Shown: positions 2,952 to 46,568 of the stretch, in pieces | Numbering within the stretch: the first letter of the stretch is position 1 | Layout of the letters: every line of letters starts with the position of its first letter | From: an uncultured delta proteobacterium | GTDB lineage: Bacteria > Desulfobacterota > Desulfobacteria > Desulfobacterales > UBA11574 | Length of the DNA: 64,000 nt | Assembly (NCBI GenBank): GCA_963778575.1 | Contig: CAVZUV010000008.1 | Location: 86,746-150,745 of the forward strand | Direction: 5' to 3' | Program-made: the position numbers and the translations under genes | Notes under the pieces: model-generated | The model's input: only the letters and a program-made list of their open reading frames with translations | Database searches by the model: none | What the model was told of the DNA's origin: nothing

Positions 2952-5501
2952 GTGAAGCGCATTCTCACATACCAGATTTTTCCTTCTATCCCGAAATCAC
3001 TGGCCTTTTTGGAAGTTTTGTCTCGAAATCTCTGGTGGTGCTGGAAGCAGGATGCCATCACGCTGTTTCGGCGCATTGAACCGCAACTTTGGATAGAATC
3101 CAGAGGAAACCCGATTTACCTTTTGTCCCATGTCAGTCAGAAGCGCTTGGAGGAGCTGGCCGGGGATGACAGTTTTTTGAGCCATCTGCAACGGGTCGAG
3201 GATCGTTTTACAAAACGGGTTATCGATCATGCCGAACTATCCAATTCTCTTTACAAAAAAATGGGACCGGTGGCCTATTTTTCAATGGAATTTGGTGTCA
3301 ATGAAAATATTCCCTTTTTTGCCGGCGGACTGGGTGTCCTTGCCGGAGACCACTTAAAAGCTGCCTCCAACATGGCGTTGCCCCTCGTCGGGATCGGGTT
3401 GCTGTATCGAAAGGGCTATTTCCGTCAATATCTTGATCAAGAGGGATTGCAACAGGAAGAATATCCGGAAATAGAATTTTATTATCTTCCACTGGAGCGC
3501 GCCCGGGATCCCCAGGGCAATGAAATCACAATTTCAATTAATGGGCCTGAAAACGAGATTCACGCGTTTGTCTGGAAAATCCGAGTGGGCCGCACCCCTC
3601 TGTTTTTGCTCGATACCAATCTTCCTGAGAATACTCCGGAGGCCCGGGAAATTACGGCACGCCTTTATGTAGCTGAGCCCAAAATCAGGCTGGCCCAGGA
3701 AATACTGCTCGGCATCGGCGGCATGCGGGCATTGGCGGCTATGGATCTCTTTCCATCCGTTTGTCATATGAATGAAGGGCATTCGGCTTTCTCCGCTCTG
3801 GAACGTCTTGCACTGTTCATGGAGCGTTTTCACGTAGATTTAAAGACTGCCTTGCAAATTATTCCCCGTTGTACAATGTTTACCACTCATACCCCGGTTG
3901 CCGCCGGGCATGATTCTTTCCCCGTCGATTTGGTCAAGCCGTGGATTCGGCCGTTGAAAGATCGCCTGGGAGCCGGTGAAGAAGAAATTTTATCTTGGGG
4001 GCAAACTGAGGGTTTCAATAAAGACGCGCCGTTTTACATGTGTATTCTGGGTCTGCGAATGTCTCAGTATCGTAACGGCGTCAGCCGTCTTCACGACAGA
4101 ACCGCCAGAAAGATGTGGGCCCATCTTTGGCCGGGGTGGCCGGAAGACGAGATCCCGATTTCCCATGTCACCAACGGAATACATGTCTCGACGTTTATTT
4201 CCCAGGAAATCTGGCCGTTGTTTGAACGTTATCTGGGACCGGAATGGTACATGAGTTCACGGCGGCCCGAAAACATTGACCGTATTGACGAGATTTACGA
4301 CGACGAGCTCTGGCGGGCCCATGAGATGAGCCGTTCCCGGTTGATCCGCACCTGCCGAGGACTATTAAAACAACAATACGAAAGACGCAATGCACCCAAG
4401 AGCGTCATCGAAAAAATCGAAGCAGTCCTGAATCCTGAAGTGTTAACCATCGCCTTTGCCCGCAGGTTTGCTGCTTACAAACGGGCGCACCTGCTGCTTG
4501 AGGATCCTGATCGGCTGGCGGCGATTCTCAACAACGAAACCCGTCCGGTGCAGATCATTTTCGCTGGAAAAGCCCACCCCCAGGACAAAAAAGGAAAAGA
4601 AATCATCAAACGTCTGCTTGAATTTATCCGCCGGCCGGAAATTCGTCCGCACGCAGTATTTATTGAGGGTTACGATATGGCACTGGCAAGATCTCTGGTT
4701 CAGGGCGCCGATGTCTGGCTGAGTACTCCCCGCAGACCTTTAGAGGCCTGCGGCACATCCGGGATGAAAGCCGCCGTCAATGGTGTGCTCAATGTCAGTA
4801 TTTTGGATGGATGGTGGTGTGAAGGCTATTCCGAAGAACGGGGATGGCGAATCGGAGGCGGTGAAGAATATGTCGATCATGAATACCAGGATGCCACCGA
4901 GAGTCAGGCTCTGTATAACGTGTTGGAAAATGATGTAATCTCATGCTTTTACGAAGAGAACGAGGGAGAACTTCCAAAGCGCTGGATTCGAATGATGAAA
5001 GCCTCTATGAAAATGGCCATGAAGGATTTTTGCAGCTTGCGAATGGTTGGAGAATATGAACAACGCTTTTATAATCCCATCGTTCACCGGTTGAAAGCAT
5101 TGCTGAATAAAAATGGTCTGGAAGCCCGCAACCTTGCGCTCCAACAAGAACGGATTCAGAGCCTGTGGAAGGACATCCGCATTGGGCTGCCCGTCCAGAC
5201 CCGCAAGGGACCGTTTCGCGTTGGTGATCACTTCGAAGTTACGGTAGAAGTCGATCTGGGAAAACTAAATCCCGAAGAAGTCAGCGTGGAACTTTACAAT
5301 GGGCACATGAAAGCAGTGGATGCACTGGAGGGTATCAGTACGATTCCTATGACCGTCATTGAGCATTTCGGTAATGGAAATTATCGTTACGGTTGCAAGG
5401 TCCCCTGTGGATTGTCCGGACGGTATGGATTTACGGTCAGGGCCATACCCGCAGGTGACGATTTTTTAAAATTTTTGCCGCGATTGATCACCTGGTCTTA
5501 G
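2952..5501 (+). CDS. glgP: alpha-glucan (glycogen) phosphorylase, GT35, DUF3417-type N-terminus
   Basis: 849 aa. Motifs FSMEFGV..PFFAGGLGVLAGDHLKAAS, TTHTPVAAGHD and GTSGMKAAVNGVLNVSILDGWW (PLP-lysine region). GTG start. Confidence 0.9.
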   Translation: MKRILTYQIFPSIPKSLAFLEVLSRNLWWCWKQDAITLFRRIEPQLWIESRGNPIYLLSHVSQKRLEELAGDDSFLSHLQRVEDRFTKRVIDHAELSNSLYKKMGPVAYFSMEFGVNENIPFFAGGLGVLAGDHLKAASNMALPLVGIGLLYRKGYFRQYLDQEGLQQEEYPEIEFYYLPLERARDPQGNEITISINGPENEIHAFVWKIRVGRTPLFLLDTNLPENTPEAREITARLYVAEPKIRLAQEILLGIGGMRALAAMDLFPSVCHMNEGHSAFSALERLALFMERFHVDLKTALQIIPRCTMFTTHTPVAAGHDSFPVDLVKPWIRPLKDRLGAGEEEILSWGQTEGFNKDAPFYMCILGLRMSQYRNGVSRLHDRTARKMWAHLWPGWPEDEIPISHVTNGIHVSTFISQEIWPLFERYLGPEWYMSSRRPENIDRIDEIYDDELWRAHEMSRSRLIRTCRGLLKQQYERRNAPKSVIEKIEAVLNPEVLTIAFARRFAAYKRAHLLLEDPDRLAAILNNETRPVQIIFAGKAHPQDKKGKEIIKRLLEFIRRPEIRPHAVFIEGYDMALARSLVQGADVWLSTPRRPLEACGTSGMKAAVNGVLNVSILDGWWCEGYSEERGWRIGGGEEYVDHEYQDATESQALYNVLENDVISCFYEENEGELPKRWIRMMKASMKMAMKDFCSLRMVGEYEQRFYNPIVHRLKALLNKNGLEARNLALQQERIQSLWKDIRIGLPVQTRKGPFRVGDHFEVTVEVDLGKLNPEEVSVELYNGHMKAVDALEGISTIPMTVIEHFGNGNYRYGCKVPCGLSGRYGFTVRAIPAGDDFLKFLPRLITWS

Positions 5502-5544
5502 CGCAGATCTTTGATGAAGAATGGATCGGGCCGTTATGGTTATA

Positions 5545-5712
5545 TTTTTACATTAACCTTTGAGCCAAAAATAGGAGATAGGAAAGAGCAAAGAGGAAAG
5601 AGAGAAAAAGTTGTTTCAATGTATGGGGGAAATCCCTATCTGGGAGATTTTCCCAGAAAAAATGAATCTTTTCCCTATGGACAAAGCTGACCAGATCGAC
5701 AATAAATAATAG
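5545..5712. repeat. conserved intergenic module, copy 1 (copy 2 at 10783..10946)
   Basis: Shared blocks are TTTT(A)CATTAACCTTTG..CCAAA and TGTATGGGG..ATTTTC.CAGAAAAAATGAATC..CCCTATGGACAAA..TCGA.AATAAAT. Indels between the copies are not multiples of three. Confidence 0.65.
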
Positions 5713-5757
5713 GTTGTTCTAATCAAAATAAAAAAATGACGGATATCAGGGGGTAAA

Positions 5758-6330
5758 ATGGATAAGCTCTATTTTTTAGAGGATATTCTTCAACCCGACC
5801 GCATGGAATTTGCCGGCGAATTTTCTGAATTTGATCATAAATCGGAGGTTGCAAACCCGTCGCTGCTGCTGCAAATGATGGATACAAACACGGTAAAAAA
5901 TACTGAAAAGAGAGCGCACGAACGATTTTGGGCTAAAAAAGATGCTTTTGCGCTGATCCGGCCGGCTGCTGCCGGGCATTTGGACATTGCGGACAGGAGT
6001 ATGGGTCAAATTGCATGTGCCGTATATCGATCGAAACCGGTCAGGTTCGGCAGAATCGTTAACATCAGCATGGGCGGGCTTTTATTTCGTTATATTAACG
6101 GCGAGGAGCAATCCATCCGATTGCCGGTGCTGGACATATTGGTAGCTGATTCGGGCTTTTACCTTGAAAATTTGATGTTTAAAAACATTGACGATATAGA
6201 GATAAATGATGATTTCACGATCAATTCTTTTAAGATGCGGCAGAATCGGGTGAAGTTTGAAGAACTGGGACCTGCCGCAATGATGAAGCTGAAGTTTTTT
6301 GTTGAAAATTACACGGTATCCGGGTCTTAG
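5758..6330 (+). CDS. PilZ domain-containing protein (putative c-di-GMP receptor)
   Basis: RAHERF (RxxxR) followed by GRIVNISMGGLLF (D/NxSxxG), the bipartite PilZ signature. Confidence 0.6.
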   Translation: MDKLYFLEDILQPDRMEFAGEFSEFDHKSEVANPSLLLQMMDTNTVKNTEKRAHERFWAKKDAFALIRPAAAGHLDIADRSMGQIACAVYRSKPVRFGRIVNISMGGLLFRYINGEEQSIRLPVLDILVADSGFYLENLMFKNIDDIEINDDFTINSFKMRQNRVKFEELGPAAMMKLKFFVENYTVSGS

Positions 6331-6466
6331 AAGAAATGTCGCAACCTATCTTAACCATAACACTTCCCAAGGAAGAAAAGGTCAAGAAAAAACAGGTTAA
6401 GATTAACGTTGCGTAATCTGAATGTTATTTCTTTGCATTTACAAAAAAATATGGATATATGAAAAA

Positions 6467-6503
6467 GGCGAGAAATTGAAAATCAGGCATTCTCGCCTTT
6501 TTT
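6467..6503 (+). terminator. rho-independent terminator-like hairpin
   Basis: GGCGAGAA-15 nt loop-TTCTCGCC followed by TTTTTT. An A-run upstream could allow bidirectional use. Confidence 0.6.
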
Positions 6504-6522
6504 ACATGGATAAAATAATTTA

Positions 6523-8172
6523 ATGCACCATTTGAAAAAATTGTCCCCTCTTGTCGCGTTTTTGATTTTCGGCAGTATTGCGGTGTTGCTGTGGCAAAAT
6601 CAAAATAGCTACGAACGAGAGCTTGTCCTCCGGCATACGGAAACTTCTTCGAGGCAGATAAGGACTCGTATTGAAGGTTTGATGAATGCTCGCATGGCTT
6701 CACTGGAATTACTGGCGGAAAGATGGGTTGAGAGGGTTCCGCCGGATTTCAGCCAGACGCGTTTTATTGACTTTGCCCAGGTGTTTTATTCCCATCACCC
6801 CGGTTTTATGGGAATCAACTGGATTGATCCTGCGGGCGTCGTTCGATGGGTTTATCCTAGAAATAGCAATGAAAGCGTCATCGATAAGCCGATCTTTAAA
6901 CCTCAGGATCCCCATTTTGGCAAAAAATTTCAAATACTCCACTCCAGACAAAATATCGTAACCCCTTGTATGAAGTTGATTCAGGGAGGACTCGGTTACA
7001 ACACATTTTTGCCGCTCGTCTATTCCGGCAGGATTCAAGGTTATCTGAACGGTGTATTCCGGGTTAAAGGCATTGTGGATATCAGCCTGGCCAAGGACAT
7101 CTCCAACGAATTTTGGGTACGTCTGTACGAAGAGGATCGACTGATTTACACCAATGACATTCAAAGCGACGACAATCCGGAAAAAAATGGATTGCGAATG
7201 CTTCGGGAGATTCGGTTTCCCGGCAAAGTCTGGAAGCTGGATCTTGTTCCAAAGGCCCTCATTTATCCGTCCGGCGCGGGTTGGCATGTTTCCTTTCTCG
7301 TTTTTGGGCTTATAATCTCGGCATTGCTCTCATTGCTCCTTCATCTTCTTCTCGAGCGGATGCAAATGTACCGGCAAGCCAGGGATCAGGCGCTTCAAGA
7401 GATCAGTGAACGGAAACGCACGGAAACGGCATTAAAGGAAAATGAAAAAAAGTTGGAAACCGCGCTCGCCGAACTCGAAGACAAAAATACAGAACTGGAA
7501 ACCTTCGTGTATACGGTTTCCCACGATTTAAAAACCCCTATCGTCACCATCGAGGGATTTATTGGCGCCCTTCGGGAGGATTTTGGAGACCGGATCGATG
7601 AAAATGCTGAAAAATACCTGAATTACATGAGTGATGCTTCCCGGAACATGGAACTGCTGATCACCGACTTGCTGTATCTTTCCCGCATCGGGCGGTTGCC
7701 GGAAAGAAAAACGGAATTCGCCTTTGACGATCTCATGGAAAAAGTTCTAAATACGCTCCAACGTCAAATTAAGAAAAGCGGCGTCACATTAAATGTTGAA
7801 AAAGGTTTTCCCCTGATTTATGGTGAAATGGAACGATTGTGCCAGGTGATGGAGAACCTGTTGTCCAACGCCATTAAATACATCGGAAAGGAGAATCCTT
7901 CTCCCAGGATCGATGTGGGGGCAATGGATCAGAACGGCCGCAAGGTATTCTTTGTCCGGGACAACGGTATCGGTATTGAAAAAAGATATCATCAAAAGAT
8001 TTTCGAAATCTTTCAACGACTCCCGGCTGCAAAAAAATCCGCAGAGGGGACAGGCGTCGGGATGACCATCGTAAAGCGGATTATTGAACATCATGGCGGC
8101 GACATCTGGCTGGAATCCGAGCCGGGGAAAGGGACCGCGTTTTTTTTCACCCTCAAAGGGAAGGAGGCATGA
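6523..8172 (+). CDS. sensor histidine kinase with periplasmic sensor domain and coiled coil
   Basis: Two TM segments flank a ~230-aa extracytoplasmic region. H-box VSHDLKTPI. N and G boxes NLLSNAIKY, DNGIGI, GTGVGMTIVKRIIEHHGG. Confidence 0.9.
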   Translation: MHHLKKLSPLVAFLIFGSIAVLLWQNQNSYERELVLRHTETSSRQIRTRIEGLMNARMASLELLAERWVERVPPDFSQTRFIDFAQVFYSHHPGFMGINWIDPAGVVRWVYPRNSNESVIDKPIFKPQDPHFGKKFQILHSRQNIVTPCMKLIQGGLGYNTFLPLVYSGRIQGYLNGVFRVKGIVDISLAKDISNEFWVRLYEEDRLIYTNDIQSDDNPEKNGLRMLREIRFPGKVWKLDLVPKALIYPSGAGWHVSFLVFGLIISALLSLLLHLLLERMQMYRQARDQALQEISERKRTETALKENEKKLETALAELEDKNTELETFVYTVSHDLKTPIVTIEGFIGALREDFGDRIDENAEKYLNYMSDASRNMELLITDLLYLSRIGRLPERKTEFAFDDLMEKVLNTLQRQIKKSGVTLNVEKGFPLIYGEMERLCQVMENLLSNAIKYIGKENPSPRIDVGAMDQNGRKVFFVRDNGIGIEKRYHQKIFEIFQRLPAAKKSAEGTGVGMTIVKRIIEHHGGDIWLESEPGKGTAFFFTLKGKEA

Positions 8173-8176
8173 ATCC

Positions 8177-8626
8177 ATGGATTACGAACCCTTGGATATA
8201 TTGCTTGTGGAAGATGAGCCGGCCCATGCGGAACTTACCAGGCGCGCAATTCGAAAAGCCGGAAACGCCAACCGGGTCTTCACTGTATCTGATGGCGAGG
8301 AAGCCTTAGACTATCTTTACCATAGTGGGAAATATGAAGATAACGTCAAATATCCCTTGCCCGGGTTGATTTTATTGGATATCAAGCTGCCCGGTATCGA
8401 CGGCATTGAGATTTTAAAGACGATCAAGGAAGATGCATTGCTGAAACGAATTCCGGTGATCATGCTGACCACGTCGGAACGGGAAGAGGATATTGCCCGA
8501 TCCTATAATCATTATGCCAACAGCTACCTGACCAAACCTGTCGGGTTCAAGGAATTTGAGGAAAAAATCATGCAAATTGAGTTTTACTGGATGATTCTCA
8601 ATAAGCCGCCTGTCTTAACAGAATAA
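8177..8626 (+). CDS. single-domain response regulator (receiver)
   Basis: ATG 8177 lies 5 nt after the kinase stop and has a GGAGG RBS. ILLVEDE ... LILLDIKLPGIDG ... LTKP. Confidence 0.9.
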   Translation: MDYEPLDILLVEDEPAHAELTRRAIRKAGNANRVFTVSDGEEALDYLYHSGKYEDNVKYPLPGLILLDIKLPGIDGIEILKTIKEDALLKRIPVIMLTTSEREEDIARSYNHYANSYLTKPVGFKEFEEKIMQIEFYWMILNKPPVLTE

Positions 8627-8663
8627 ATTTGTTTTACGCGCCCGAAGGAAAATTTTAGGAGTT

Positions 8664-10136
8664 TTGACAGTGGAACCCTTGAAGCTCGTCATCATCGAGG
8701 ACGAGAAAGCCCATTTCAGCCTGATGAAGCGGGCCATCGCCAAAGAATTTCCAAACGCCTCGGTCTATCATTTTCAGGATGCCACCACATGCCTTGACCG
8801 CCTTGACAGCATCGTTCCCTCCGTCATCATCACGGATTACCTTCTGCCGGGTATGAACGGTATCGAGTTCTTGGAGACCCTAAGTCAAAAGGGCGGAGAT
8901 GTCCCGGTGATTATGATCACGGGCCAGGGAGACGAGAATATCGCTGTCCGCGCCATGAAATTGGGAGCTATCGATTATCTGGTCAAGTCCAGGAATTTTT
9001 TTACCCTGCTTCCCGCCGTCATTGAAAAAGTGATTCAAAAAAACAGACTTGAGCAATCTCTTTTAAAATTCGAAAAACGATTTCAGGACATGGCTGAAAA
9101 CACATCGGACTGGGTCTGGGAGATGGACGCCCAAGGCAGGTATATCTATTCAAACCCTCTTGTAGAAGACATCACCGGCTATCGCTGTGACGAGGTGATC
9201 GGTAGATACTTTTACGATTTTTTATCTTCAGAAAATAAAGAAGTCTTAAAAGCGACGATCTTTGATCTGATATCCCAATTAAAACCCATCAAGTCCCTTG
9301 ATAATATTCTGGTTCGAAAAGACGGATTTGAAGCGATCATGGAGACCAGTGGCGTTCCGTGTTTGGACAAAAAGGGAAACTTAACCTGCTACAGGGGCGT
9401 CAATCGAGACATTAGTGAACGAAAACGTGCCGAATCCCGTATTCGACGCCTATCTCAACAATTATTAAAAGCACAGGAAACCGAACGTCAGATGATTTCC
9501 TTTGAGCTCCACGACCGGGTGGCACAAGATCTTTCCGCTACAAAAATCGGGTTTGACATGCTTTTAAAGGCTCAGCCTTCATTGGATTTCGCAGTAAAAG
9601 AAAAATTGCTGGACATCTCAAATTGCCTTCAAAGGGCCATCAATGCCATCCGTGATCTCTCATATGATTTGCAACCTCCGGCCCTGGCGGAAATGGGCCT
9701 TGTGAAAGCGCTTGAAATATATTGTGAAGAATTTTATAGCCAATTGGGAATAAAAGTTGACTTCCAATCGGCGGGTTTAAATTTATTCGGACTGGATTCG
9801 AATACCGAAATCCATCTTTACCGTTTGGTTCAAGAAGGTCTAAACAATATCCGCAAACATGCCGATACCGACCAGGCCGTCGTCAGGCTTGTGGGCGTAT
9901 TCCCGAATATCATTCTTCGCATTGAAGACAGCGGAAAAGGTTTTGATATCAAGATACGGGAGATTGAATTGGGCGATGAAAAGCGGATGGGCCTTCGAAG
10001 CATGAGAGAAAGAACCGGCTTGCTGGGTGGTCAAATGATTGTTCAATCGCGTCCGATGCACGGCACCAGAATATTTATAAAAATACCTTGCCAGGAGCAA
10101 AACCGTGAGTCCAAAAAAACGCATATTGATTATTGA
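8664..10136 (+). CDS. hybrid receiver-PAS-histidine kinase (HisKA_3/NarL-type)
   Basis: N-terminal REC (VIITDYLLPGMNG), a PAS segment, H-box ELHDRVAQDLSA and a HATPase domain. The start is TTG 8664 or GTG 8670. Confidence 0.85.
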   Translation: MTVEPLKLVIIEDEKAHFSLMKRAIAKEFPNASVYHFQDATTCLDRLDSIVPSVIITDYLLPGMNGIEFLETLSQKGGDVPVIMITGQGDENIAVRAMKLGAIDYLVKSRNFFTLLPAVIEKVIQKNRLEQSLLKFEKRFQDMAENTSDWVWEMDAQGRYIYSNPLVEDITGYRCDEVIGRYFYDFLSSENKEVLKATIFDLISQLKPIKSLDNILVRKDGFEAIMETSGVPCLDKKGNLTCYRGVNRDISERKRAESRIRRLSQQLLKAQETERQMISFELHDRVAQDLSATKIGFDMLLKAQPSLDFAVKEKLLDISNCLQRAINAIRDLSYDLQPPALAEMGLVKALEIYCEEFYSQLGIKVDFQSAGLNLFGLDSNTEIHLYRLVQEGLNNIRKHADTDQAVVRLVGVFPNIILRIEDSGKGFDIKIREIELGDEKRMGLRSMRERTGLLGGQMIVQSRPMHGTRIFIKIPCQEQNRESKKTHIDY

Positions 10137-12132: not shown

Positions 12133-13833
12133 ATGATTAATTCTCCAGCCAATCCCCGGATACTGCTGGTGACACCTGAGGTTACCTATCTTCCCGATGG
12201 AATGGGGCAATTTGCCAATGGTTTAAATGCCAAAGCCGGGGGGCTTGCCGATGTGTCGGCAGCATTGATCAATGCACTGTACCGTCGAGGCGCCGATGTC
12301 CATGTCGCCTTGCCCGACTATCGGTCCATATTTAGCGGCAGTATGGCACCCATTGTAAAAAGAGAACTCGGTAAATTAAGAAACAGCGTTCCGGAAGAAA
12401 GAATCCATCTGGCTCAAGACAGGGCATTTTTCTATCTGAACCATATTTATTCCGAAAATGAGTTTGAAAACGTTAAAATATCGCTGGTCTTTCAGCGAGA
12501 CGTGATCAACAATATTATTCCCAGAGTGCAGCCTGATTTAATCCATTGCAATGACTGGATGACCGCTTTGATTCCGGCCGTGGCCAGACATTTGGGCATT
12601 CCCTGTCTGTTTACCATTCACAACATCCATACGGTTAAATGCACTCTTTCCGAAATCGAGGAAAGGGGCATTGACAGTGCTTTGTTCTGGCAGAACCTTT
12701 ATTATGAAAATTTCCCTTCCAATTATGAAAATACCAGAAACTCGATCCCTGTAGATTTTCTGGCCAGCGGTGTTTTTGCCGCTCATTTTGTCAACACGGT
12801 CAGCCCCGGATTTTTAGAAGAAATGGTCGAAGGCCGGCACGGATTTGTGAAAAATTGTATGCAACAAGAGCTGGCCAACAAAAATAACGCCGGATGTGCC
12901 ATGGGAATTTTAAATGCCCCCGACCCTTCTTATCACCCATCCAATGATGAGGTACAGCCCTGCAAGTATTCCGCAAGCAATCATGCTTTGGGAAAAAAGA
13001 CCAATAAGCGGATGTTTCAAAAAGATTTGGGTTTGATCCGGGACCCCCAAGCCCCCATCTTTTTTTGGCCTTCACGTCTGGATCCGGTTCAAAAAGGATG
13101 CCGATTATTAGCGGATATCCTTTATGAGGTCGTTTGCCGCTATCGGAAAGAGAATCTTGAAATTGTTTTTGTGGCGGACGGGGAGTTTCAAAGGCATTTT
13201 AAAGACATCGTTCGATATCACGATTTGTTCGATCGTGTGGCAATATGTGATTTTAATGAACGTTTGGCCCGGCTGGCTTACGGGGCGTCGGATTTTGTAT
13301 TCATGCCTTCAAGTTTAGAACCCTGCGGTCTTCCCCAGATGATCGGTCCGATATACGGCGTCCTCCCGGTGGCTCATGATACCGGCGGCATTCATGATAC
13401 GGTATTTCAATTGGATGTTTCTAAGGATACGGGCAACGGATTTTTGTTTAACACCTTCGATTCAGGCGGTTTGTCATGGGCCATTGATCAGGCCATGCAG
13501 TTTTATAGAATGTCCTCTGATATCAAAGATCGGCAGATCCGTCGAATAATGACGGAAAGCGCCGCAATATTTAATCATCAGGTCACCGCAAAACAATATA
13601 TCGATCTATATGAAAAGATGCTTCAGCGCCCACTCATTAACCGGGAAAATATTGATTCTCCTGATATCCGTAACATTTCAAGTCAGAAAGGATATCATAA
13701 ACCAAACAGAAAAGATCCGAAGACGCATCGGTTTCCATTAGAACATCCGGATGCACGAAATATTATCCGTTTTCCAAAAAGACACCGGGATGTTGAGAAA
13801 CAGCGACTCCAAAAATATCGGGTAAATTCATAG
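12133..13833 (+). CDS. glgA: glycogen synthase-like glycosyltransferase (GT5) with ~90-aa basic C-terminal extension
   Basis: N-terminal ILLVTPEVTYL...KAGGLADVSAAL (the K-x-GGL-x-DV hallmark). C-terminal PSSLEPCGLPQM. Confidence 0.8.
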   Translation: MINSPANPRILLVTPEVTYLPDGMGQFANGLNAKAGGLADVSAALINALYRRGADVHVALPDYRSIFSGSMAPIVKRELGKLRNSVPEERIHLAQDRAFFYLNHIYSENEFENVKISLVFQRDVINNIIPRVQPDLIHCNDWMTALIPAVARHLGIPCLFTIHNIHTVKCTLSEIEERGIDSALFWQNLYYENFPSNYENTRNSIPVDFLASGVFAAHFVNTVSPGFLEEMVEGRHGFVKNCMQQELANKNNAGCAMGILNAPDPSYHPSNDEVQPCKYSASNHALGKKTNKRMFQKDLGLIRDPQAPIFFWPSRLDPVQKGCRLLADILYEVVCRYRKENLEIVFVADGEFQRHFKDIVRYHDLFDRVAICDFNERLARLAYGASDFVFMPSSLEPCGLPQMIGPIYGVLPVAHDTGGIHDTVFQLDVSKDTGNGFLFNTFDSGGLSWAIDQAMQFYRMSSDIKDRQIRRIMTESAAIFNHQVTAKQYIDLYEKMLQRPLINRENIDSPDIRNISSQKGYHKPNRKDPKTHRFPLEHPDARNIIRFPKRHRDVEKQRLQKYRVNS

Positions 13834-14709: not shown

Positions 14710-14724
14710 TGGCACACCTTTTGC
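14710..14724 (+). promoter_or_regulatory. sigma-54 (-24/-12) promoter
   Basis: TGGCAC-ACCTT-TTGC is a perfect consensus, 81 nt upstream of the ATG at 14805. Confidence 0.8.
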
Positions 14725-16088: not shown

Positions 16089-16796
16089 ATGGAACTCGTT
16101 TTGAATAAAAAGGAATTCACACTGGGGGCGGTCCTCACGGTTGCCTTCTTTGTCTTTTTGTTTGCAATACATACCATCGCAGTCATCAGCATCAACGGAA
16201 AATCCCTGGTGCGTTACACCGATGAGATGTTTGTATCCGTATCCAAAGGCTCGGTTTACTTTATCCCGGAGCTTGTGAAATCGGCAGACAAACATGTTGG
16301 AAAAATTCTCGATGTCAAAATAAAGAAAAACGAAAAAGCGGCAATGCTCTTCAAAAAGGCGAACGCAAGCGTTATTTCGGAAAATGGAGATCTGAAGATA
16401 AAAGGGGATTTGGGCGAGATATTAAAAAGCGTCCTTGCAGATGCCGACGCCGTCTTCAAGGGTGAAGACAAGCCATTATACGAGAGATACGGATATGCCG
16501 GTAAGGAGGTTGTGCTTCAGTGGTGGTTGGCTTTTAAAGAAATAGAGGGCGTGTTTCAAAAAGCCAAAAAGTTTGCTGGAATAAAACCCTTGGAAACGGT
16601 AAGAATCAAGGCACTTGAGCCGGCATTTAACTTTTATGGGGTCGAAGCAACATCCGCCTCGCAACATGTTTGGGGCATAACCGGTATTATTGGATTCTAC
16701 GTGGTATACACGGTGTGGTGGGGATATGCCATATACTTTCTTTGCGAGGGCGTGGGACTGCTGATGAAAAAATCCAAGGAAAAAAAGGAAGCGTAA
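16089..16796 (+). CDS. conserved hypothetical membrane protein, partner of the TauE-like gene
   Basis: 235 aa with one N-terminal and two C-terminal TM helices. Homologous to 38800..39486 (GDLGEILKSVLADADAVF vs GDLAKILSNCLADADSMY). Starts 4 nt after the upstream stop. Confidence 0.7.
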   Translation: MELVLNKKEFTLGAVLTVAFFVFLFAIHTIAVISINGKSLVRYTDEMFVSVSKGSVYFIPELVKSADKHVGKILDVKIKKNEKAAMLFKKANASVISENGDLKIKGDLGEILKSVLADADAVFKGEDKPLYERYGYAGKEVVLQWWLAFKEIEGVFQKAKKFAGIKPLETVRIKALEPAFNFYGVEATSASQHVWGITGIIGFYVVYTVWWGYAIYFLCEGVGLLMKKSKEKKEA

Positions 16797-19270: not shown

Positions 19271-19285
19271 TGGCATATCTTTTGC
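19271..19285 (+). promoter_or_regulatory. sigma-54 (-24/-12) promoter
   Basis: TGGCAT-ATCTT-TTGC is identical to the 15-mer at 1332. It lies 117 nt upstream of the ATG at 19402. No convincing 26-nt element is present upstream. Confidence 0.65.
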
Positions 19286-19401
19286 ATAATTTGCATGATA
19301 AAATTCATCAACAGCATAAAACGGAATTTAATGAAATCGTTACCAATCTTCAATTTTGAATAAACATCATCGATAAAACGTGTTCTTATCACGGCCAATT
19401 T

Positions 19402-22400
19402 ATGAACGATAAAGTCTCCGGGATACTTTTTGACAAACACGACCATGAGTTGATCCGAATCGTCAACGATGTCCTTGAAGGGAAAAGCAGCTACAAGTAC
19501 GCCCGCCGAGTTTACTATCCGTACTTCCATTCCCACGGCATCAAAGAAATGACTGAAACCAGGGGATTGCGGATCGCCTATGCGGTGGTCCACCTGTTAA
19601 GTTCTCTGGAAGTCGGCGGGGTTGAGGAACGTATCAATGCGTTGCGCCTCTTGCGCAATGAAGTGATCGATACCGCCGAAGGCCCGATGCCGAAAAATAC
19701 CGCCAGGGTGTTACTGCAAATCATGAAGGATTTGGTGCGGGTTCGCGGCGATTATCGCAAGCAACTTCAACTGGCCCATGACTTCCGGATGGCGACATCC
19801 GGGAAACCGCGCATCATCCGGCGGCAACTCAAACGCTACCATCTCTTGGAGATGCCCGAAGATTGGAATCAAATTGCATTCGACGATCATGTTCACGATG
19901 TCAACACCAAAGGGCGCAAGTCTTCCACCCATCTTGTTATGGATGCATGGATAAAAGGTATCCAACGCCTGCGGGTGATCCACTACAACTTTATCGAGCC
20001 GCGTTTTGCGGCCGAACTTCTTGAAGCCGCCAAAATTCTGAAAATCGACATTCGAATCGGCATTGAGTTTTATACGCGATTCCATGACAAATACGTGCAA
20101 TTGATATGGGTCCCTCGCGGGTTTAACGATGCACAGGCATTCCTATGCTTTCTTGCCGAACCGGCAGTCATGAAGATCATGGAGGCCGGCCGAAGGGTTT
20201 CGATCTATCAACAAGAATATGTTCCGGCGCTTCTTAAGAAATTTAATGAAAGCCACCGTCCGGAGATCAACCGAATTTACGGAATCGAGTTGCCCTCCAT
20301 TGATGAAAAAGAATTTCTGGCGTACGTGGGGATCGGGCAGAAATCAAGATTGCATCTCGCGAAATTCATCCATGACCGGATGTTGAAAGTGTTGCAGGGG
20401 AAAACCGATCGGTTAAAGGAAGAGTTTCTCTTGGCAAGCCCCGAACGGCGAGATACCATCACCCAATGGATCGAATCCATGAACACACAGGATTTCGAAT
20501 CCGTCATCGACGGGTATCTGGCGCCTGAAAAAAACCGCGGGATCAGATATCCGGATATGGTGGACGATGGCCCGGATGTCCCGGAACTGTTGCAACTCGG
20601 TTCATTTGAAATTTTGAGACGACTCGCTCAACTCCATTCGGGATACCGGGTGACGCTGAATCTAACCAATTTGAACGCCGGGGATGTCCTGGAGCTGTTA
20701 TACGATTGCCAAGGGATGATTACCCGGCTCGAGATATTCAATCTTAAAGATCATGCCGCGGGCAAGACCGCCCATATTGCTGAAATCAGCCGTTTGCAGG
20801 AAGCGATTAACGAAGGAAGTCCGATTCATCTAAAGCAAATCATTCGTGAGATTATTGAAGATCTCAGGCAACCGGGAACTTCGGCCAATGCTCAACAAAT
20901 AGACAAATTGATTACGATTCTCTACGATATCGATATATTGAAGTCTTACTACGCCGGAAAGCCCCTTAAATCTAGGATCGGAAGTGATTCCACGGGCCGT
21001 TCTCCCAAGGTTCATGGAATGGGGCTGGCGATCAAGGAAACGCTTCCGAGACGGGCGCAACGGCAAATCGTACTGGATTGCCGGACGGGTGTTCGTGAGA
21101 CCATTCCCATTAAAATCAATGCATACAAATACACGATTGACATTCCACATGAATCCGCCAGGCCATTTGACAAGTTAATATCCGGATTGGCAACGATTCT
21201 CCCGGGTTTCAGCCGATTAAACGTCATACGCCGACAAGGCTGGCAGGTTCAGGCGACTTCTACCCGTATGGTTCGCTCGGGCAACATTGTGACTCTCGGT
21301 GGCGCTCAGAAAAATATTGTTAACGAACTTTATCTCAAGGCGCCGGAGTTGCCGAAAAGAAGGCGAGGGTTGCAGTGGTCCTATTTGAACTCAAAGCTGA
21401 AAAACGCTCTCAAGGTAATGATCGGATTTATTCCGGCTTTTCTAACCTTTGCCCTGACCAAGGATTGGTGGGTGTTGGCTTATTTGGGAGCCTTTATCTG
21501 GTTCGGAATTACCGGTCTGCGCAATATTCTTCAATCTGTTCTGGGCGGCGGCGGTTTTCGCCGCTCGCCGCTGTTGAATTGGAATGATTACGTCAGTTGG
21601 ACGCGTATTACGGATTCTCTGCTTTTCACCGGATTTTCCGTACCGCTTTTGGATTATGTGGTCAAAACCGTGATATTGGATCGGGGGTTTGGTATCACGA
21701 CCCAGACCAGCCCGGTTCTTTTGTATACATTTATGGCGTTGGCCAACGGTATTTATTTGTCCGGTCATAATATTTTCCGTGGTCTGCCCAAAGGCGCGGT
21801 TTATGGGAACTTCTTCCGCAGCATCCTGTCCATTCCCGTGGCCGTAATATTAAATGCCGGTATCGGCGGCATCCTCACCATGTCGCAAACAGCGGGTGTC
21901 AATGATATATTGCAAAAGTGGGCGGCGATTATATCAAAGGCCGCATCGGATTTTGTTGCCGGTTTCATTGAAGGGACCGCCGACCGGTACAAGAATATCC
22001 GGACGCGTTTGCGTGAGTACAAAAACAAGTTCAGAGAGCTTTTGGACATTTATGCACAATTGGAACTGCTCTATCCGGACGTAGAGTCTTTCAAAATCCT
22101 TGATTGTGCATCTGACATGAATCGGAAAACCAATGCAGAAGCCCGGGATCTCGAAAAAATTATCATGATCCACGCCCTGGACATGCTGTATTTTTGGATG
22201 TACCAGCCGCGTTCCCACGTGGCTTTTCCGCAATTCTTGCGCACGCTTTCAGTCGATGAACGCTATATTCTGGTCAGCTCGCAGTTCACACTTCAGCGTC
22301 ACCGTGAGATCAGTCAAATGTTTATTGACGGCATCTTGGGATTCAATTTTCCTCGGCCGCTTTCGTTTTATCTTTCACGCTACGAGGAATACCTTGAACA

Positions 22401-22470
22401 AATCAAACAATTGGTGCTCAGTGAAGAATTCGGAGAGGTGTATGCTGAAAACGCTGTGCCCCCTAATTGA
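19402..22470 (+). CDS. large (1022 aa) hypothetical protein: ~650-aa soluble N-terminal region plus C-terminal polytopic membrane domain
   Basis: Long uninterrupted ORF. TM segments run from about residue 665 (VMIGFIPAFLTFAL, WWVLAYLGAFIWFGITGL, LLYTFMALANGIYL, ILSIPVAVILNAGIGGIL). No family recognised by eye. Confidence 0.75.
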   Translation: MNDKVSGILFDKHDHELIRIVNDVLEGKSSYKYARRVYYPYFHSHGIKEMTETRGLRIAYAVVHLLSSLEVGGVEERINALRLLRNEVIDTAEGPMPKNTARVLLQIMKDLVRVRGDYRKQLQLAHDFRMATSGKPRIIRRQLKRYHLLEMPEDWNQIAFDDHVHDVNTKGRKSSTHLVMDAWIKGIQRLRVIHYNFIEPRFAAELLEAAKILKIDIRIGIEFYTRFHDKYVQLIWVPRGFNDAQAFLCFLAEPAVMKIMEAGRRVSIYQQEYVPALLKKFNESHRPEINRIYGIELPSIDEKEFLAYVGIGQKSRLHLAKFIHDRMLKVLQGKTDRLKEEFLLASPERRDTITQWIESMNTQDFESVIDGYLAPEKNRGIRYPDMVDDGPDVPELLQLGSFEILRRLAQLHSGYRVTLNLTNLNAGDVLELLYDCQGMITRLEIFNLKDHAAGKTAHIAEISRLQEAINEGSPIHLKQIIREIIEDLRQPGTSANAQQIDKLITILYDIDILKSYYAGKPLKSRIGSDSTGRSPKVHGMGLAIKETLPRRAQRQIVLDCRTGVRETIPIKINAYKYTIDIPHESARPFDKLISGLATILPGFSRLNVIRRQGWQVQATSTRMVRSGNIVTLGGAQKNIVNELYLKAPELPKRRRGLQWSYLNSKLKNALKVMIGFIPAFLTFALTKDWWVLAYLGAFIWFGITGLRNILQSVLGGGGFRRSPLLNWNDYVSWTRITDSLLFTGFSVPLLDYVVKTVILDRGFGITTQTSPVLLYTFMALANGIYLSGHNIFRGLPKGAVYGNFFRSILSIPVAVILNAGIGGILTMSQTAGVNDILQKWAAIISKAASDFVAGFIEGTADRYKNIRTRLREYKNKFRELLDIYAQLELLYPDVESFKILDCASDMNRKTNAEARDLEKIIMIHALDMLYFWMYQPRSHVAFPQFLRTLSVDERYILVSSQFTLQRHREISQMFIDGILGFNFPRPLSFYLSRYEEYLEQIKQLVLSEEFGEVYAENAVPPN

Positions 22471-22480
22471 CCATAAAAAA

Positions 22481-22511
22481 AGCACGAAATTTTATCTTTT
22501 TCGTGCTTTTT
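22481..22511. terminator. bidirectional rho-independent terminator between convergent genes
   Basis: AAAAAAA-AGCACGAAA-loop-TTTCGTGCT-TTTT. Confidence 0.7.
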
Positions 22512-22530
22512 CATTTGTGTGTGTTCGCGA

Positions 22531-23313
22531 CTAAGACGCTGTTGCTGTTTCAGCTATTCCGGAATATGAAAGTTCCTCGGCAAACTTTTTCTTAAAGGCC
22601 AGTTCAACAATCTCCGCCGCATCTCGTGTATTTTTGATATAGTCACAATTGATCACCAAATCAAACTCATATGGAACGGCCATTTTTTTGTCGAAAATCT
22701 TTTTAAAAAATTCACTTTGTTCCTTATCCAATTGCGGTAACTTTGAGGCGGCCTCTTTCTTTTCAACGTTGAGAATTCTGGACAATCGCTTAATCCGGTG
22801 CTCGTCCGAACAGATGCATCTGACCGCCAGCACCCGGTCCCGGGGAAGGATTAAATGGGTTCCCCTGCCGACAAAAATGGTGGGTTCCAAGCCGGCGATG
22901 GAAAGCACAACATTCGCAAGATGACGGCTATAGTCGCTTTTAATAAAGGATTTTTCACCGAAGAGAAGCTTGACGAATTCGTTTAAAACGCCGGGATACC
23001 GTTCATCGAAATAGGAGACTGTTTTTTCGCTGAGTTTCGCCTCCTGGGCGATATGCATCAGCAGTCCCCTGTCAACCACATTGTAGTTGATCTTTTTTGC
23101 CAGAATATCTGCAATCTCGAGAGCGCCGACGCCGATTTTTCGAGAAAAACAGATCGTAGGAAAAATCGCGGGTCTCTTTTCCTTTTTTTTCTTTTCAATC
23201 CATTTTTGATCCAGATCACGAAAATACTTATCAGCCAGTTGGGAACCGGTGGGTCTTTTTTTTTCGTACATCCCCGGAATGTATTTTACACCTCCGATTT
23301 GTATAGCCATCAT
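22531..23313 (-). CDS. cytidylate kinase-like family protein
   Basis: 260 aa with TICFSRKIGVGALEIADILAKKINYNVVDRGLL. Resembles 54910..55761 in its N-terminal half. Confidence 0.6.
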   Translation of the reverse strand: MMAIQIGGVKYIPGMYEKKRPTGSQLADKYFRDLDQKWIEKKKKEKRPAIFPTICFSRKIGVGALEIADILAKKINYNVVDRGLLMHIAQEAKLSEKTVSYFDERYPGVLNEFVKLLFGEKSFIKSDYSRHLANVVLSIAGLEPTIFVGRGTHLILPRDRVLAVRCICSDEHRIKRLSRILNVEKKEAASKLPQLDKEQSEFFKKIFDKKMAVPYEFDLVINCDYIKNTRDAAEIVELAFKKKFAEELSYSGIAETATAS

Positions 23314-23408: not shown

Positions 23409-23423
23409 GCAACTATTATGCCA
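23409..23423 (-). promoter_or_regulatory. sigma-54 (-24/-12) promoter, minus strand
   Basis: The reverse complement reads TGGCAT-AATAG-TTGC. It lies about 96 nt upstream of the minus-strand ATG at 23313. Confidence 0.7.
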
Positions 23424-23701: not shown

Positions 23702-23716
23702 TGGAATAGTTATTGC
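23702..23716 (+). promoter_or_regulatory. sigma-54-type promoter with non-canonical -24 box
   Basis: TGGAAT-AGTTA-TTGC. It is accepted mainly because the 26-nt element and the IHF-like site sit at the canonical offsets. Confidence 0.55.
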
Positions 23717-26636: not shown

Positions 26637-26651
26637 TGGCATGTTTTTTGC
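26637..26651 (+). promoter_or_regulatory. sigma-54 (-24/-12) promoter
   Basis: TGGCAT-GTTTT-TTGC, 70 nt upstream of the ATG at 26721. Confidence 0.7.
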
Positions 26652-31157: not shown

Positions 31158-31172
31158 TGGCATAGCGATTGC
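31158..31172 (+). promoter_or_regulatory. sigma-54 (-24/-12) promoter
   Basis: TGGCAT-AGCGA-TTGC, 53 nt upstream of the ATG at 31225. Confidence 0.75.
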
Positions 31173-44279: not shown

Positions 44280-46283
44280 CTAATTCAACACCAAATCGAT
44301 GACCTCTTCCAATTCATTGATTTCGATGATCTGAATATCTTTTTTAATATCCTCGGAGATATCCTTGATGTCCGAATTGTTTCTGGCCGGGAAAACCACG
44401 GATTTGACACCGGCCCGGTGCGCGGCCAGGACCTTTTCCTTGACGCCGCCCACAGGCAGAATCCTTCCGCTTAACGTCAACTCGCCGGTCAGCGCGACGT
44501 TCCTTTTGCAGGAACGGTTCGTTATCAGGCTGATGAGCGCTACGGCGATGGTCACGCCGGCGGACGGACCGTCTTTAGGGATCGCGCCGGCAGGCACATG
44601 GATGTGAATGTCATGGGTTTCGAATAGGCTGTCCGGGATATTGAAAGCATCAGCGTGGCTTCGAATATAACTCATCGCCGCGTGAGCCGATTCCTTCATC
44701 ACGTCTCCCAATGACCCGGTGAGAATAAGATTGCCTTTTCCTTTCATTTTGGCGGCTTCAATAAAGATGATCTGGCCTCCGGCTTCCGTCCATGCCAGTC
44801 CGGTGGCCACGCCCACCCTTTCTCTGGCTTCTGCAATCTCGAAATAAAACTTTTGAGGGCCTAAAAAATCTTCCACCATTTCCGGCGTTAGATGGGTCGC
44901 TCCGTCTTTATACGCCCCGCGCAATGTTTCACGGGCGATTTTACGGCAAATGGATGCAATCTGACGTTTGAGATTTCTCAAACCCGCTTCCCGGGTGTAC
45001 TCCCGGATGATCTTATGGATGGTCTCCGGCGTGAAAACCGGCGGGTTTTCGGTGAGCCCCGCTTCTTCGATTTCTCTGGGGATTAAATATCGGGTTGCGA
45101 TTTTTGCTTTTTCTTCTTCCGTATACCCCAACAGGGTAATCACCTCCAGGCGGTCCAGCAGGGGGCCCGGAATAAGATCCAGGGCATTTGCAGTGGCGAT
45201 GAACATCACACGAGACAGGTCAAAGGGAACATCCAGGTAATGATCCGTAAAATGCGTATTCTGTTCGGGATCAAGAACCTCCAGCAAGGCCGCGGCCGGA
45301 TCCCCTTTAAAATCACCGCCGATTTTGTCGATTTCATCGAGCATAATCACGGGATTCTTTGTTTCCGCACGGCGTATTTCCTGAATAATTCTTCCCGGCA
45401 ACGCACCGACATAGCTTTTACGGTGCCCTCTTATTTCAGCCTCATCCTTCATGCCGGCCAGAGATATGCGAACAAATTTTCGTTCCAAACTCCTGGCAAT
45501 CGACATGCCCAGCGATGTTTTTCCGGTGCCGGGAGGGCCGGCAAAACAGAGTACCGGTCCTTTGGGCTCTAAACGAACTTTTTTCTTATACAATGCTTTT
45601 TGGATGGTTGAACGGATTTCATCGAGCCTTAACGGTTTGGTCAGATAATGGTATGATCCTTTTTTCATCGCCTCAATGGCCGTTGATACGGTGGCATACC
45701 CTGTGATGATAATCACTTCGGTACTTGGGTTGACCGCTTTGGCTTTTTCCAGAACCGTCATGCCGTCGACTTTTCCCATTTTGAGATCCGTGACGATAAC
45801 ATCAAAGGCACTTTTTTCCAGAAAATCCAACGCCTCTACACCATCGGAAGCGGTATTGACGTGATAGCCGTCTTTTTTAAAAACATGTTCCAGATTCTGG
45901 CGGGTAATTTTTTCATCATCCACCACCAGTATCTTGTGTTGGCCCGACATCTTGAGAATCCTGACGGAAAGATGCTCCAAAATGCGGTCTTTTATGTTGG
46001 CCAGTCCAAAATGATCTTCATCGAGGATGGATTCGGCCCGTTTAATATCGAGGTTGTCATTGGTCATTTTGTTCCAGGGCAGACTCAACAGATAATCGAT
46101 ATAGTTGATGCCGATGGTATATTCAGTGCTTGAAGGGGAGGTTTTGGTCAGCCGCTCGAGTTCTTTGTGGACGACTTTTTCTACCGGTTCGGGCATTTTG
46201 GCCCTTTGTACGTCTTCTTTAAGTTCATTGAGTTCCGACGGCAGTTCCTTCATTTGTCCTTTTTCCTTCTTAAATATTCGCAT
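44280..46283 (-). CDS. lon: Lon-type ATP-dependent protease lacking the N-terminal substrate domain and carrying an inserted receiver (REC) domain
   Basis: 667 aa. Lon linker LDEDHFGLANIKDRILEHLSV, then REC (ILVVDDEKITRQNLE...VIVTDLKMGKVDG...LTKP), then Walker A GPPGTGKTS, and the protease motif PKDGPSAGVTIAVAL. Confidence 0.85.
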   Translation of the reverse strand: MRIFKKEKGQMKELPSELNELKEDVQRAKMPEPVEKVVHKELERLTKTSPSSTEYTIGINYIDYLLSLPWNKMTNDNLDIKRAESILDEDHFGLANIKDRILEHLSVRILKMSGQHKILVVDDEKITRQNLEHVFKKDGYHVNTASDGVEALDFLEKSAFDVIVTDLKMGKVDGMTVLEKAKAVNPSTEVIIITGYATVSTAIEAMKKGSYHYLTKPLRLDEIRSTIQKALYKKKVRLEPKGPVLCFAGPPGTGKTSLGMSIARSLERKFVRISLAGMKDEAEIRGHRKSYVGALPGRIIQEIRRAETKNPVIMLDEIDKIGGDFKGDPAAALLEVLDPEQNTHFTDHYLDVPFDLSRVMFIATANALDLIPGPLLDRLEVITLLGYTEEEKAKIATRYLIPREIEEAGLTENPPVFTPETIHKIIREYTREAGLRNLKRQIASICRKIARETLRGAYKDGATHLTPEMVEDFLGPQKFYFEIAEARERVGVATGLAWTEAGGQIIFIEAAKMKGKGNLILTGSLGDVMKESAHAAMSYIRSHADAFNIPDSLFETHDIHIHVPAGAIPKDGPSAGVTIAVALISLITNRSCKRNVALTGELTLSGRILPVGGVKEKVLAAHRAGVKSVVFPARNNSDIKDISEDIKKDIQIIEINELEEVIDLVLN

Positions 46284-46553: not shown

Positions 46554-46568
46554 TGGCACAAGAGTTGC
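46554..46568 (+). promoter_or_regulatory. sigma-54 (-24/-12) promoter
   Basis: TGGCAC-AAGAG-TTGC is a perfect consensus. The predicted start near 46580 excludes the track start at 46576. Confidence 0.7.

Follow-up and report, generated by a model that had tools for sequence, protein, structure and literature searches.

The 64,000-nucleotide (nt) stretch of DNA analyzed here (the window; positions 86,746 to 150,745 of contig CAVZUV010000008.1, from an uncultured delta proteobacterium, assembly GCA_963778575.1) contains a gene for a protein of 1022 amino acids (aa) that an earlier note, made from the sequence alone, had described as an orphan without an assignable motif. Profile searches and structure prediction coupled with Foldseek, as recommended in that note, placed the protein instead in a family with a cryptic PHP phosphoesterase domain, which in this protein is joined to a six-helix membrane domain. 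The interpretation to which we give an even chance is that the protein is a membrane-integrated, cytoplasm-facing, metal-dependent PHP phosphoesterase, the six-helix domain of which helps to bind an anionic, membrane-associated phospho-substrate. The open reading frame (ORF) was as described in the note, as was its general layout, in which a mixed alpha/beta part of about 650 aa precedes hydrophobic helices and a helical tail, except that the helices numbered six rather than five.

The link to PHP enzymes emerged only through structure prediction and the sequences of distant subfamily members; searches of Pfam, NCBIfam, PADLOC and PDB sequences with the single sequence or a first profile gave no match, and divergent family members likewise gave no Pfam PHP match. 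A first AlphaFold (AF2) model, based on 44 close homologs, was poor (pLDDT 58.5) and was replaced, its top Foldseek matches already being PHP phosphoesterases. The second AF2 model, based on an alignment of 111 sequences (24–88% identity) that also provided the conservation counts given below, was confident (pLDDT 85.7, pTM 0.86), and in this model residues ~151–548 fold as a PHP barrel of the TrpH/RNase AM type. The top Foldseek matches of the second model in the PDB (probability 1.0, target TM-score 0.59–0.69) were all TrpH-type PHP enzymes, including RNase AM (9etk, E = 3e-6), BAD_1165 (3o0f and 3e0f, E = 5e-6 and 9e-6, respectively) and Cv1693 (2yb1, E = 3e-4), with PHP domains of DNA polymerase III (Pol III) alpha lower down the list. 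The distorted (beta/alpha)7-barrel of the PHP superfamily was evident from these matches as well as from the order of strands in the model, and the PHP family was again the top match in a library of viral structures (BFVD).

Sequence comparisons within the family pointed in the same direction. The best PDB sequence match of the family profile was 3e0f (E = 0.059 and 0.02), aligned in register through DxHxH, [DE]G...P, GxE and the strand-4 ligand, and three TrpH-type NCBIfam models (accessions NF047791, NF041577 and NF041661; the enzymes modeled are pAp phosphatase, RNase AM and cyclic phosphate dihydrolase) were matched over their first ~75 positions by six of six distant members with E values from 4e-6 to 5e-3, the scores over these positions being 11–26.5 bits compared with cut-offs of 375–500. 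Some distant members had been labeled automatically as "PHP domain-containing" or "TrpH" (NCBI, JGI). The PHP motifs found in the window protein, to which the note could assign no motif, were D161-x-H163-x-H165-D166, G220-x-E222 and G527-S528-D529. A helical insertion of 167 aa between barrel strands 4 and 5 was poorly conserved (17% identity to the distant subfamily); its position presumably matches that of a helical insertion carried by TrpH-type enzymes. The distant-subfamily profile also matched the helix-hairpin-helix region of RuvA (E = 0.005, positions 483–598), an alignment with RuvA domain II that depended on an invariant G-M-G after the GSD motif (residues 538–541, nt ~21013–21024). 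This match was rejected as probably due to chance because the AF2 model had coil and strand rather than two helices at this location and because only one hairpin aligned.

PHP domains have nine metal-binding positions (PMC3919608), and RNase AM binds three cations by means of strictly conserved residues (PMC11528712). In the window protein, the alpha site (H163, H165, E222 and D529) was intact and also conserved throughout the family. Motif I, the H-x-H at the end of strand 1, was represented by H163 (109 of 111 sequences) and H165 (110 of 111), and the bridging Glu of strand 3 (GxE) by E222 (108 of 111), which was aligned with a Glu of 3e0f, while D529 was invariant in the branch of the family that includes the window protein and present in 49 of 69 distant-branch sequences. 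Residues D161, D166 and K173 were invariant among the 111 sequences. The assignment of family positions to alpha, beta and gamma sites is our own and follows what we take to be the general PHP pattern.

Differences from the canonical site were noted at the other positions. The beta-site histidines of strands 4 and 5 ("xHxL" and "AHP") were replaced in the window protein by Q233 and N420. At position 233, the window's branch had Q, with D or H instead in some members, and the distant branch had H (67 of 69); at position 420, the residue was N in the window's branch and H, within an "IHP" motif, in the distant branch (51 of 69). The ExxN motif (E444, N447) and the GSD motif followed farther downstream of the strand-4 ligand. 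Ligands of the gamma site, i.e., the "SDG" Asp and a strand-2 His, were lacking. Thus, the window's branch had K at position 170 and the distant branch E, position 194 was H in the window's clade alone, all others having Y, with the alignment of the canonical "DHD" ambiguous between residues 194 and 195, and the His of the GSDAH-type motif IV (D-x-H) was replaced by T531 throughout the family even though G527-S528-D529 was present. As mapped on the family, the alpha site was intact, the beta site remodeled and the gamma site lost. Given the conserved alpha site of the family as a whole and the beta-site His of the distant branch, the ancestral enzyme probably had two metals, with the window's branch now farther from the canonical site. 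PHP domains with many ligand substitutions, such as that of proteobacterial DnaE1, are thought to be inactive, and those that have truly decayed show little if any conservation at the nine positions (PMC3919608). Unlike the decayed PHP domain of proteobacterial DnaE, each substituted ligand position of the present family was fixed within its subfamily, which suggests a working pocket.

The company kept by this barrel raised the possibility of a membrane-tethered nucleotide or nano-RNA phosphoesterase, i.e., an enzyme that removes the 3'-phosphate of pAp, degrades pGpG or short 5'-phosphorylated oligonucleotides in the 5'-to-3' direction or opens a ribose cyclic phosphate, the membrane domain serving only for localization or allosteric gating. 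All confident structural neighbors (RNase AM, Cv1693 and BAD_1165) and all three weakly matching NCBIfam models are of this type, the model has a helical insertion after strand 4 (the TrpH-type parallel presumed, as above), and the invariant Arg and Lys residues (R77, R102, K109, R172 and K173) would suit a nucleotide or oligonucleotide, just as the non-essential nature of the Nitratidesulfovibrio vulgaris ortholog (see below) would fit a redundant salvage enzyme. We nevertheless regard this explanation as unlikely. Enzymes of the RNase AM type use three metals (PMC11528712), whereas the present family lacked the gamma site altogether and, in the window's branch, also had an altered beta site; none of the NCBIfam scores exceeded 26.5 bits; and the membrane domain was the most constrained part of the protein (ratio of nonsynonymous to synonymous substitution rates, dN/dS, of 0.03) and contained invariant polar residues, beyond what an anchor needs.

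The PHP core and the membrane domain were the two most conserved modules of the protein, the latter with the lowest dN/dS and with 19% of columns at least 90% conserved. In the model, six long helices spanned residues 664–890, the last of which ran on into the cytoplasm, and a C-terminal helical domain occupied residues 896–1010; no hydrophobic segment was present in residues 1–640. Hydropathy, the AF2 helices and the distribution of Lys and Arg gave the polytopic C-terminus of the earlier note a definite topology, that of a six-helix domain with both ends in the cytoplasm. Lys and Arg numbered 18 on the predicted cytoplasmic segments compared with 1 in the three periplasmic loops, and these loops were 3, 8 and 7 residues long, which places both soluble parts in the cytoplasm and leaves no external sensor. 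Conserved, mainly polar residues of the membrane domain were located in mid-membrane (S739-P748, N782, K846 and D850), at cytoplasmic helix ends (R707/N708, H789/N790/R793, N803/R806 and E857) and in a Gly-rich loop (G715-G718), also at the cytoplasmic ends. Outside the two most conserved modules, invariant residues were noted in the N-terminal helical domain (G46, R77, N99, T100, R102 and K109) and at D927 of the C-terminal region, where W932 was also conserved. The membrane, N-terminal and C-terminal domains had no structural match in the PDB or BFVD, and the six-helix domain, for which no relative was detected in Pfam, NCBIfam, PDB or BFVD, may be a new membrane fold. Internal duplication of this domain was rejected (hhalign probability 0.2).

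Conserved charged or polar residues inside membrane helices (N782, K846, D850 and R806) and the concentration of the strongest constraint in the same domain would also be expected of a transporter or channel, in which the six-helix bundle moves an ion or small anion and the PHP barrel together with the helical domains forms a cytoplasmic module, the PHP domain being a non-catalytic pseudoenzyme for ligand binding or gating, comparable to the structural-only PHP domain of Escherichia coli Pol III alpha. Canonical ligands were lost at four to five of nine positions, a kind of loss linked to inactivity in PHP domains (PMC3919608), and the window gene adjoins genes for a Na+/H+ exchanger and a TauE-type exporter. 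This alternative is quite improbable, however, considering that the alpha-site tetrad plus D161 and D166 were conserved from 24 to 88% identity and that position 233 was always occupied by a metal-capable residue (Q, D or H), whereas decayed sites are barely conserved (PMC3919608). In addition, neither an internal repeat nor inverted symmetry, which are typical features of transporters, was found in the membrane domain, no transporter family or structure was matched in Pfam, NCBIfam or the PDB, and the transporter neighbors were not conserved.

The 1022-aa protein is a member of a large, strongly conserved and unstudied bacterial family rather than an orphan. More than 2,200 homologs were found in a large protein database, the best 120 of which were 66–97% identical over their full length and had no Pfam domain. 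In a scan of one genome per species, relatives were present in at least 585 genomes, with Desulfobacterales, Desulfatiglandales, Syntrophales and the cultured Desulfatitalea alkaliphila among the carriers, and a profile search of 1.84 billion cluster representatives (50% identity clusters) identified ~640 proteins. Most of the 150 cluster proteins listed were either ~920–1170 aa in length or shorter matches to part of the profile, which we read as probable fragments. Thermodesulfobacteriota accounted for most of the family, other members coming from Riflebacteria, Myxococcota, Bradymonadales and Ca. Vecturithrix, and almost all relatives were annotated as "hypothetical". A distant, collinear branch (~26% identical) included members from Riflebacteria/Ozemobacteraceae, Desulfonema, Desulfococcus, Myxococcota and Bradymonadales, and an intermediate branch included those of Ca. 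Vecturithrix and N. vulgaris. Pseudogenization in relatives, which the note had named as an argument against function, was not seen; all eight orthologs checked were intact, and dN/dS was ~0.10 for the seven with unsaturated dS, from which we conclude that the gene is functional. An origin in mobile elements or defense systems was rejected since the gene had no plasmid or PADLOC match and the only viral structure matches were to PHP domains of phage DnaE. One family member of 1168 aa (P0167) had an extra segment (residues ~592–665) that weakly matched the C-terminal domain of PriA, below the threshold (E = 2.8e-4; 22 bits compared with a cut-off of 26.9).

The ortholog in N. vulgaris Hildenborough (also known as Desulfovibrio vulgaris, a model sulfate reducer) was DVU_2747 (UniProt Q727V7, WP_010940013.1), annotated as a hypothetical protein. 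It was collinear with the window protein (49% identity over 999 residues with 2 gaps) and shared both the PHP motifs and the membrane domain. It differed in having Asp at position 233 instead of Gln, a sigma-70-like sequence (TTGACG-N17-TAACAAT) upstream instead of a sigma-54 promoter, and cobalamin and ABC-transporter genes as neighbors. According to the essentiality table in the preprint of a study of barcoded transposon mutants (RB-TnSeq) of this strain, DVU2747 was non-essential in three data sets, with insertions at 867 positions in the wild type (density 1.25 times the median), at 1650 positions in JW710 (0.90 times the median) and at 195 positions in the gene's central portion in the data of Fels et al. 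(2013). It is therefore unlikely, at least in this species, that the gene has an essential housekeeping role, which excludes, for example, its being the sole enzyme for a core step in lipid metabolism or rRNA maturation; the best reading is that the function is accessory. The name DVU2747 was not found in the main texts of the literature searched or in sigma-54 regulome supplements.

The sigma-54 promoter that the note had placed before the gene matched the consensus exactly (TGGCATATCTTTTGCA, with GG at -24, GC at -12 and exact spacing; consensus TGGCAC-N5-TTGCW), and the identical 15-mer reported at 1332–1346 was also present. Exact matches to TGGCAY-N5-TTGCW in the window numbered 4 compared with 0.18 expected. 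From the GC at 19284–19285, transcription is predicted to start at ~19297, giving a leader of ~105 nt, the length stated in the note. A direct repeat (TTTGCAT) attributed to the 5' untranslated region (UTR) does exist, but both copies are upstream of the predicted start site. The first copy (19281–19287) is the -12 promoter element, and the second was present only in the window and relatives L004 and L005, the other eight aligned relatives having an 8-bp gap at this location. Because copy 2 is upstream of the predicted start and confined to the three closest genomes, it represents a recent duplication of the -12 element rather than part of the UTR. The 3' part of the leader (19344–19401, the ~58 nt directly before the ATG) was conserved in 11 related genomes and the middle part varied by insertions and deletions; a Shine-Dalgarno sequence was not recognizable in the leader (19297–19401). 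A structured leader RNA element was rejected in view of the lack of an Rfam match and a fold that was not significant (z = +0.48).

In agreement with the note, a strong bidirectional terminator followed the stop codon. This hairpin (12-bp core stem, 9-nt loop, folding free energy -18.4 kcal/mol, z = -6.0), which was preceded by an A-tract and followed by a U-tract, was equaled by none of 200 shuffled sequences; a pattern scanner missed it because loops of only 3–8 nt were allowed. Since the next gene (22531..23313, minus strand) is convergent, the terminator serves both genes and the 1022-aa gene is monocistronic, as the note had concluded.

Comparison with related genomes supported the promoter. 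Of 11 orthologs at 86% or higher protein identity, 10 had the sigma-54 elements upstream, the spacer being variable (9 exact matches and 1 near match, TGGTAT). The elements were absent upstream of orthologs at 83% identity or lower, as well as in N. vulgaris, from which it follows that sigma-54 control is lineage-specific. Such control may have evolved on more than one occasion within the family. A possible near-consensus sequence (CGGCAC-N5-TTGCT) was noted ~-151 from the start codon in D. ishimotonii (L086), and in a metagenome-assembled genome of Bradymonadales (L088), a gene for an enhancer-binding protein with FHA and Sigma54_activat domains (4384–5718, minus strand) was divergent from that of the family member (6001–8859). 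The window has at least eight well-placed sigma-54 promoters, three of which drive Usp genes, and this setting fits conditional expression, which is plausible in the window's lineage, but says nothing of biochemical function. No ORF with a Sigma54_activat domain was found among the window ORFs scanned.

The note had also pointed to Usp, antiporter and TauE-like genes as context. These neighbors are present in the window but were not conserved beyond its closest relatives, and no conserved neighbor was found when 83 loci from the window's branch, 84 metagenomic loci from the distant branch and several individual genomes were inspected, so the stress function proposed from this context is weak. 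Recurring GlmM-like, CYTH and ABC neighbors, each in 17 loci or fewer, were taken to be synteny within lineages and rejected as operon partners. In Desulfonema limicola (CP061799; L085 4140–9796), the family gene (dnl_61210) begins 12 nt after a gene for GAF-PtsP (enzyme I-Ntr type), itself preceded by a phosphotransferase-system EIIA-man gene, an arrangement not seen in three other distant-branch genomes inspected. The PtsP/EIIA link and the link to a sigma-54 activator in Bradymonadales were set aside, each having been found in one of eight loci with listed called genes, and neither family was prominent in ORF clustering of the 84 loci.

These two loci, together with sigma-54 control and the Usp-rich setting in the window's lineage and the fusion of a cytoplasmic phosphoesterase domain to a polytopic membrane domain, are what might be expected of a membrane-embedded signaling phosphodiesterase that, like PgpH or GdpP, degrades a second messenger upon a membrane-sensed signal. 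Such a role is highly improbable, the short periplasmic loops being without an external sensor domain and no PAS, GAF, HAMP or other signaling domain having been detected in the protein. The PtsP and activator links were both isolated occurrences, and sensor membrane domains are usually less conserved than catalytic domains, the reverse of what was found here.

If the protein is instead a membrane-integrated PHP phosphoesterase, the PHP and membrane modules would act together, the membrane domain holding an anionic, phosphate-bearing substrate, presumably a phosphoester linked to a lipid or otherwise associated with the membrane, on the cytoplasmic face and the PHP site hydrolyzing this substrate with one or two divalent cations, while K170, R172 and K173 would stabilize the phosphate in place of a third metal. 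In the window's clade, transcription would be driven by sigma-54 and an activator. Several points weigh against this interpretation. Of the nine canonical metal ligands of PHP domains, only four or five are retained by the window protein, which on its own matched nothing in Pfam or NCBIfam at E ≤ 1, including PF02811 and the NCBIfam PHP models. Phosphoesterase activity, metal binding and substrate are predictions for every member of the family, and the orientation of the PHP pocket toward the conserved ring on the cytoplasmic side of the membrane domain is likewise a prediction. The characterized structural neighbors all act on soluble nucleotides or short RNA and not on lipids (PMC11528712), and none of the gene neighbors in the loci surveyed supports any pathway.

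A bolder form of the proposal, which we consider rather doubtful, is that the family constitutes a new class of integral-membrane enzyme in which a one- or two-metal PHP barrel is rigidly coupled to a previously unseen six-helix fold and either hydrolyzes a lipid-linked or membrane-bound phosphoester at the cytoplasmic leaflet or couples hydrolysis to translocation of the product. If so, PHP chemistry would extend to membrane substrates, and an accessory pathway of envelope or lipid remodeling would exist in sulfate reducers and related anaerobes. Some 1000 very strongly conserved residues, shared by hundreds of species among the sulfate reducers, syntrophs and related anaerobes, are now listed as "hypothetical" and without domains, and the cryptic PHP barrel provides the family with a testable chemistry, metal-dependent phosphoester hydrolysis. 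Residues singled out for mutation are H163, H165, E222, D529, K170 and K173 as well as the R707/H789/R793/R806 ring, and because DVU_2747 is non-essential and its host tractable, with barcoded transposon mutants available, the function can be approached directly.

Table. Positions of features of the 1022-aa gene and of sigma-54-type promoters in the window
Feature	Position in window	Strand	Basis or remarks
Sigma-54 (-24/-12) promoter, TGGCAT-N5-TTGCA	19271..19286	+	Exact consensus; relatives
Second TTTGCAT copy, between -12 and predicted start site	19290..19296	+	Alignment of upstream regions
Predicted 5' leader, ~105 nt	19297..19401	+	Alignment of 11 upstream regions
Coding sequence, DVU_2747 family member	19402..22470	+	1022 aa
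N-terminal all-helical domain, residues 1–150	19402..19851	+	AF2 model, conservation
PHP-fold barrel (predicted), residues ~151–548	19852..21045	+	Foldseek, family profile, NCBIfam, ligand map; motif residues D161, H163, H165, D166, K170, K173, H194, E222, Q233, N420, E444, N447, D529, T531
Helical insertion between barrel strands 4 and 5, residues 244–410	20131..20631	+	AF2 secondary structure
Poorly conserved beta-rich module and basic linker, residues 549–660	21046..21381	+	Model, conservation
Six-helix membrane domain, N-in/C-in, residues 661–862	21382..21987	+	Hydropathy, AF2 helices
Cytoplasmic stalk helix from sixth membrane helix and C-terminal helical domain, residues 863–1022	21988..22467	+	Model, conservation
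Bidirectional intrinsic terminator (A-tract, 12-bp GC-containing stem, U-tract)	22474..22515	.	Folding
Sigma-54-type promoters just upstream of same-strand genes	1332–1346, 14710–14724, 19271–19285, 23409–23423 (-), 23702–23716, 26637–26651, 31158–31172, 46554–46568		

The window was unusually dense in sigma-54-type promoters, consensus matches with one mismatch or less numbering 15 compared with 6.5 expected. Besides the three Usp genes, these promoters drive genes for the TauE exporter, a cytidylate-kinase-like protein, a response regulator of a single domain and a Pat-like fusion of acyl-CoA synthetase and GNAT. Six of the eight promoters listed in the table (those at 1332, 14710, 23423/23702, 26637 and 31158) had the 9-mer TGTAAAAAA or its complement in the 260 nt upstream; this 9-mer could be a shared activator site, a site of the integration host factor type or just AT-rich intergenic sequence. 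As TGTAAAAAA was absent upstream of the 1022-aa gene, a shared activator site for the promoter at 19271 was rejected. Genes of glycogen type were located near the Usp and sigma-54 genes (2952–5501 and 12133–13833, an ORF with DUF3417 and carbohydrate phosphorylase domains and a starch-synthase-like GT5 ORF, respectively). Directly downstream of the TauE gene, with a 1-nt overlap of its stop codon, was a 235-aa ORF (16089–16796, plus strand) without a Pfam match, followed by a gene for a YgaP-like small membrane protein. Elsewhere in the window, a 667-aa ORF (44280–46283, minus strand) contained Response_reg, AAA, Lon_lid and Lon_C domains, i.e., a receiver joined to a Lon-type AAA+ protease, which suggests a phosphorylation-controlled protease.

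Among known systems, PgpH (7TM-HD) and GdpP combine a polytopic membrane domain with a cytoplasmic metal-dependent phosphoesterase domain and in general plan resemble the window protein. Their catalytic fold is HD or DHH rather than PHP, and the domain order of PgpH is opposite to that of the window protein, which has no extracytoplasmic domain and no sequence or structural similarity to either protein that could be detected. The PHP fold of the window protein is shared with C-family polymerases (DnaE/PolC, including the degenerate domain of E. coli Pol III alpha), and partial loss of the nine canonical ligands is common to it and to the PHP domain of proteobacterial DnaE1 (PMC3919608). The polymerase domains are absent, however, and in contrast with the degenerate DnaE PHP domain, in which the nine positions are little conserved, those of the window's family were fixed in each subfamily with the alpha site intact. 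Enzymes of the TrpH/YciV type (COG0613: RNase AM, 9etk and 7ug9; the C. violaceum pAp phosphatase Cv1693, 2yb1; B. adolescentis BAD_1165, 3e0f/3o0f) have as family features a conserved Phe for base stacking (F154 of Cv1693) and the hydrolysis of pAp or short oligonucleotides. They are soluble proteins of ~280 aa with three metals and strictly conserved ligands (PMC11528712). The window protein, on the other hand, is 1022 aa long and membrane-integral, has only the alpha site unchanged in place of the three-metal set of the RNase AM/pAp phosphatase family, carries the 167-aa insertion and additional N-terminal, beta-rich, membrane and C-terminal modules, and reached the threshold of no family or equivalog hidden Markov model. 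Common to both are the distorted barrel fold and the order of the motifs, DxHxH, [DE]G...P, GxE and strand-4 ligand, in register with those of 3e0f.

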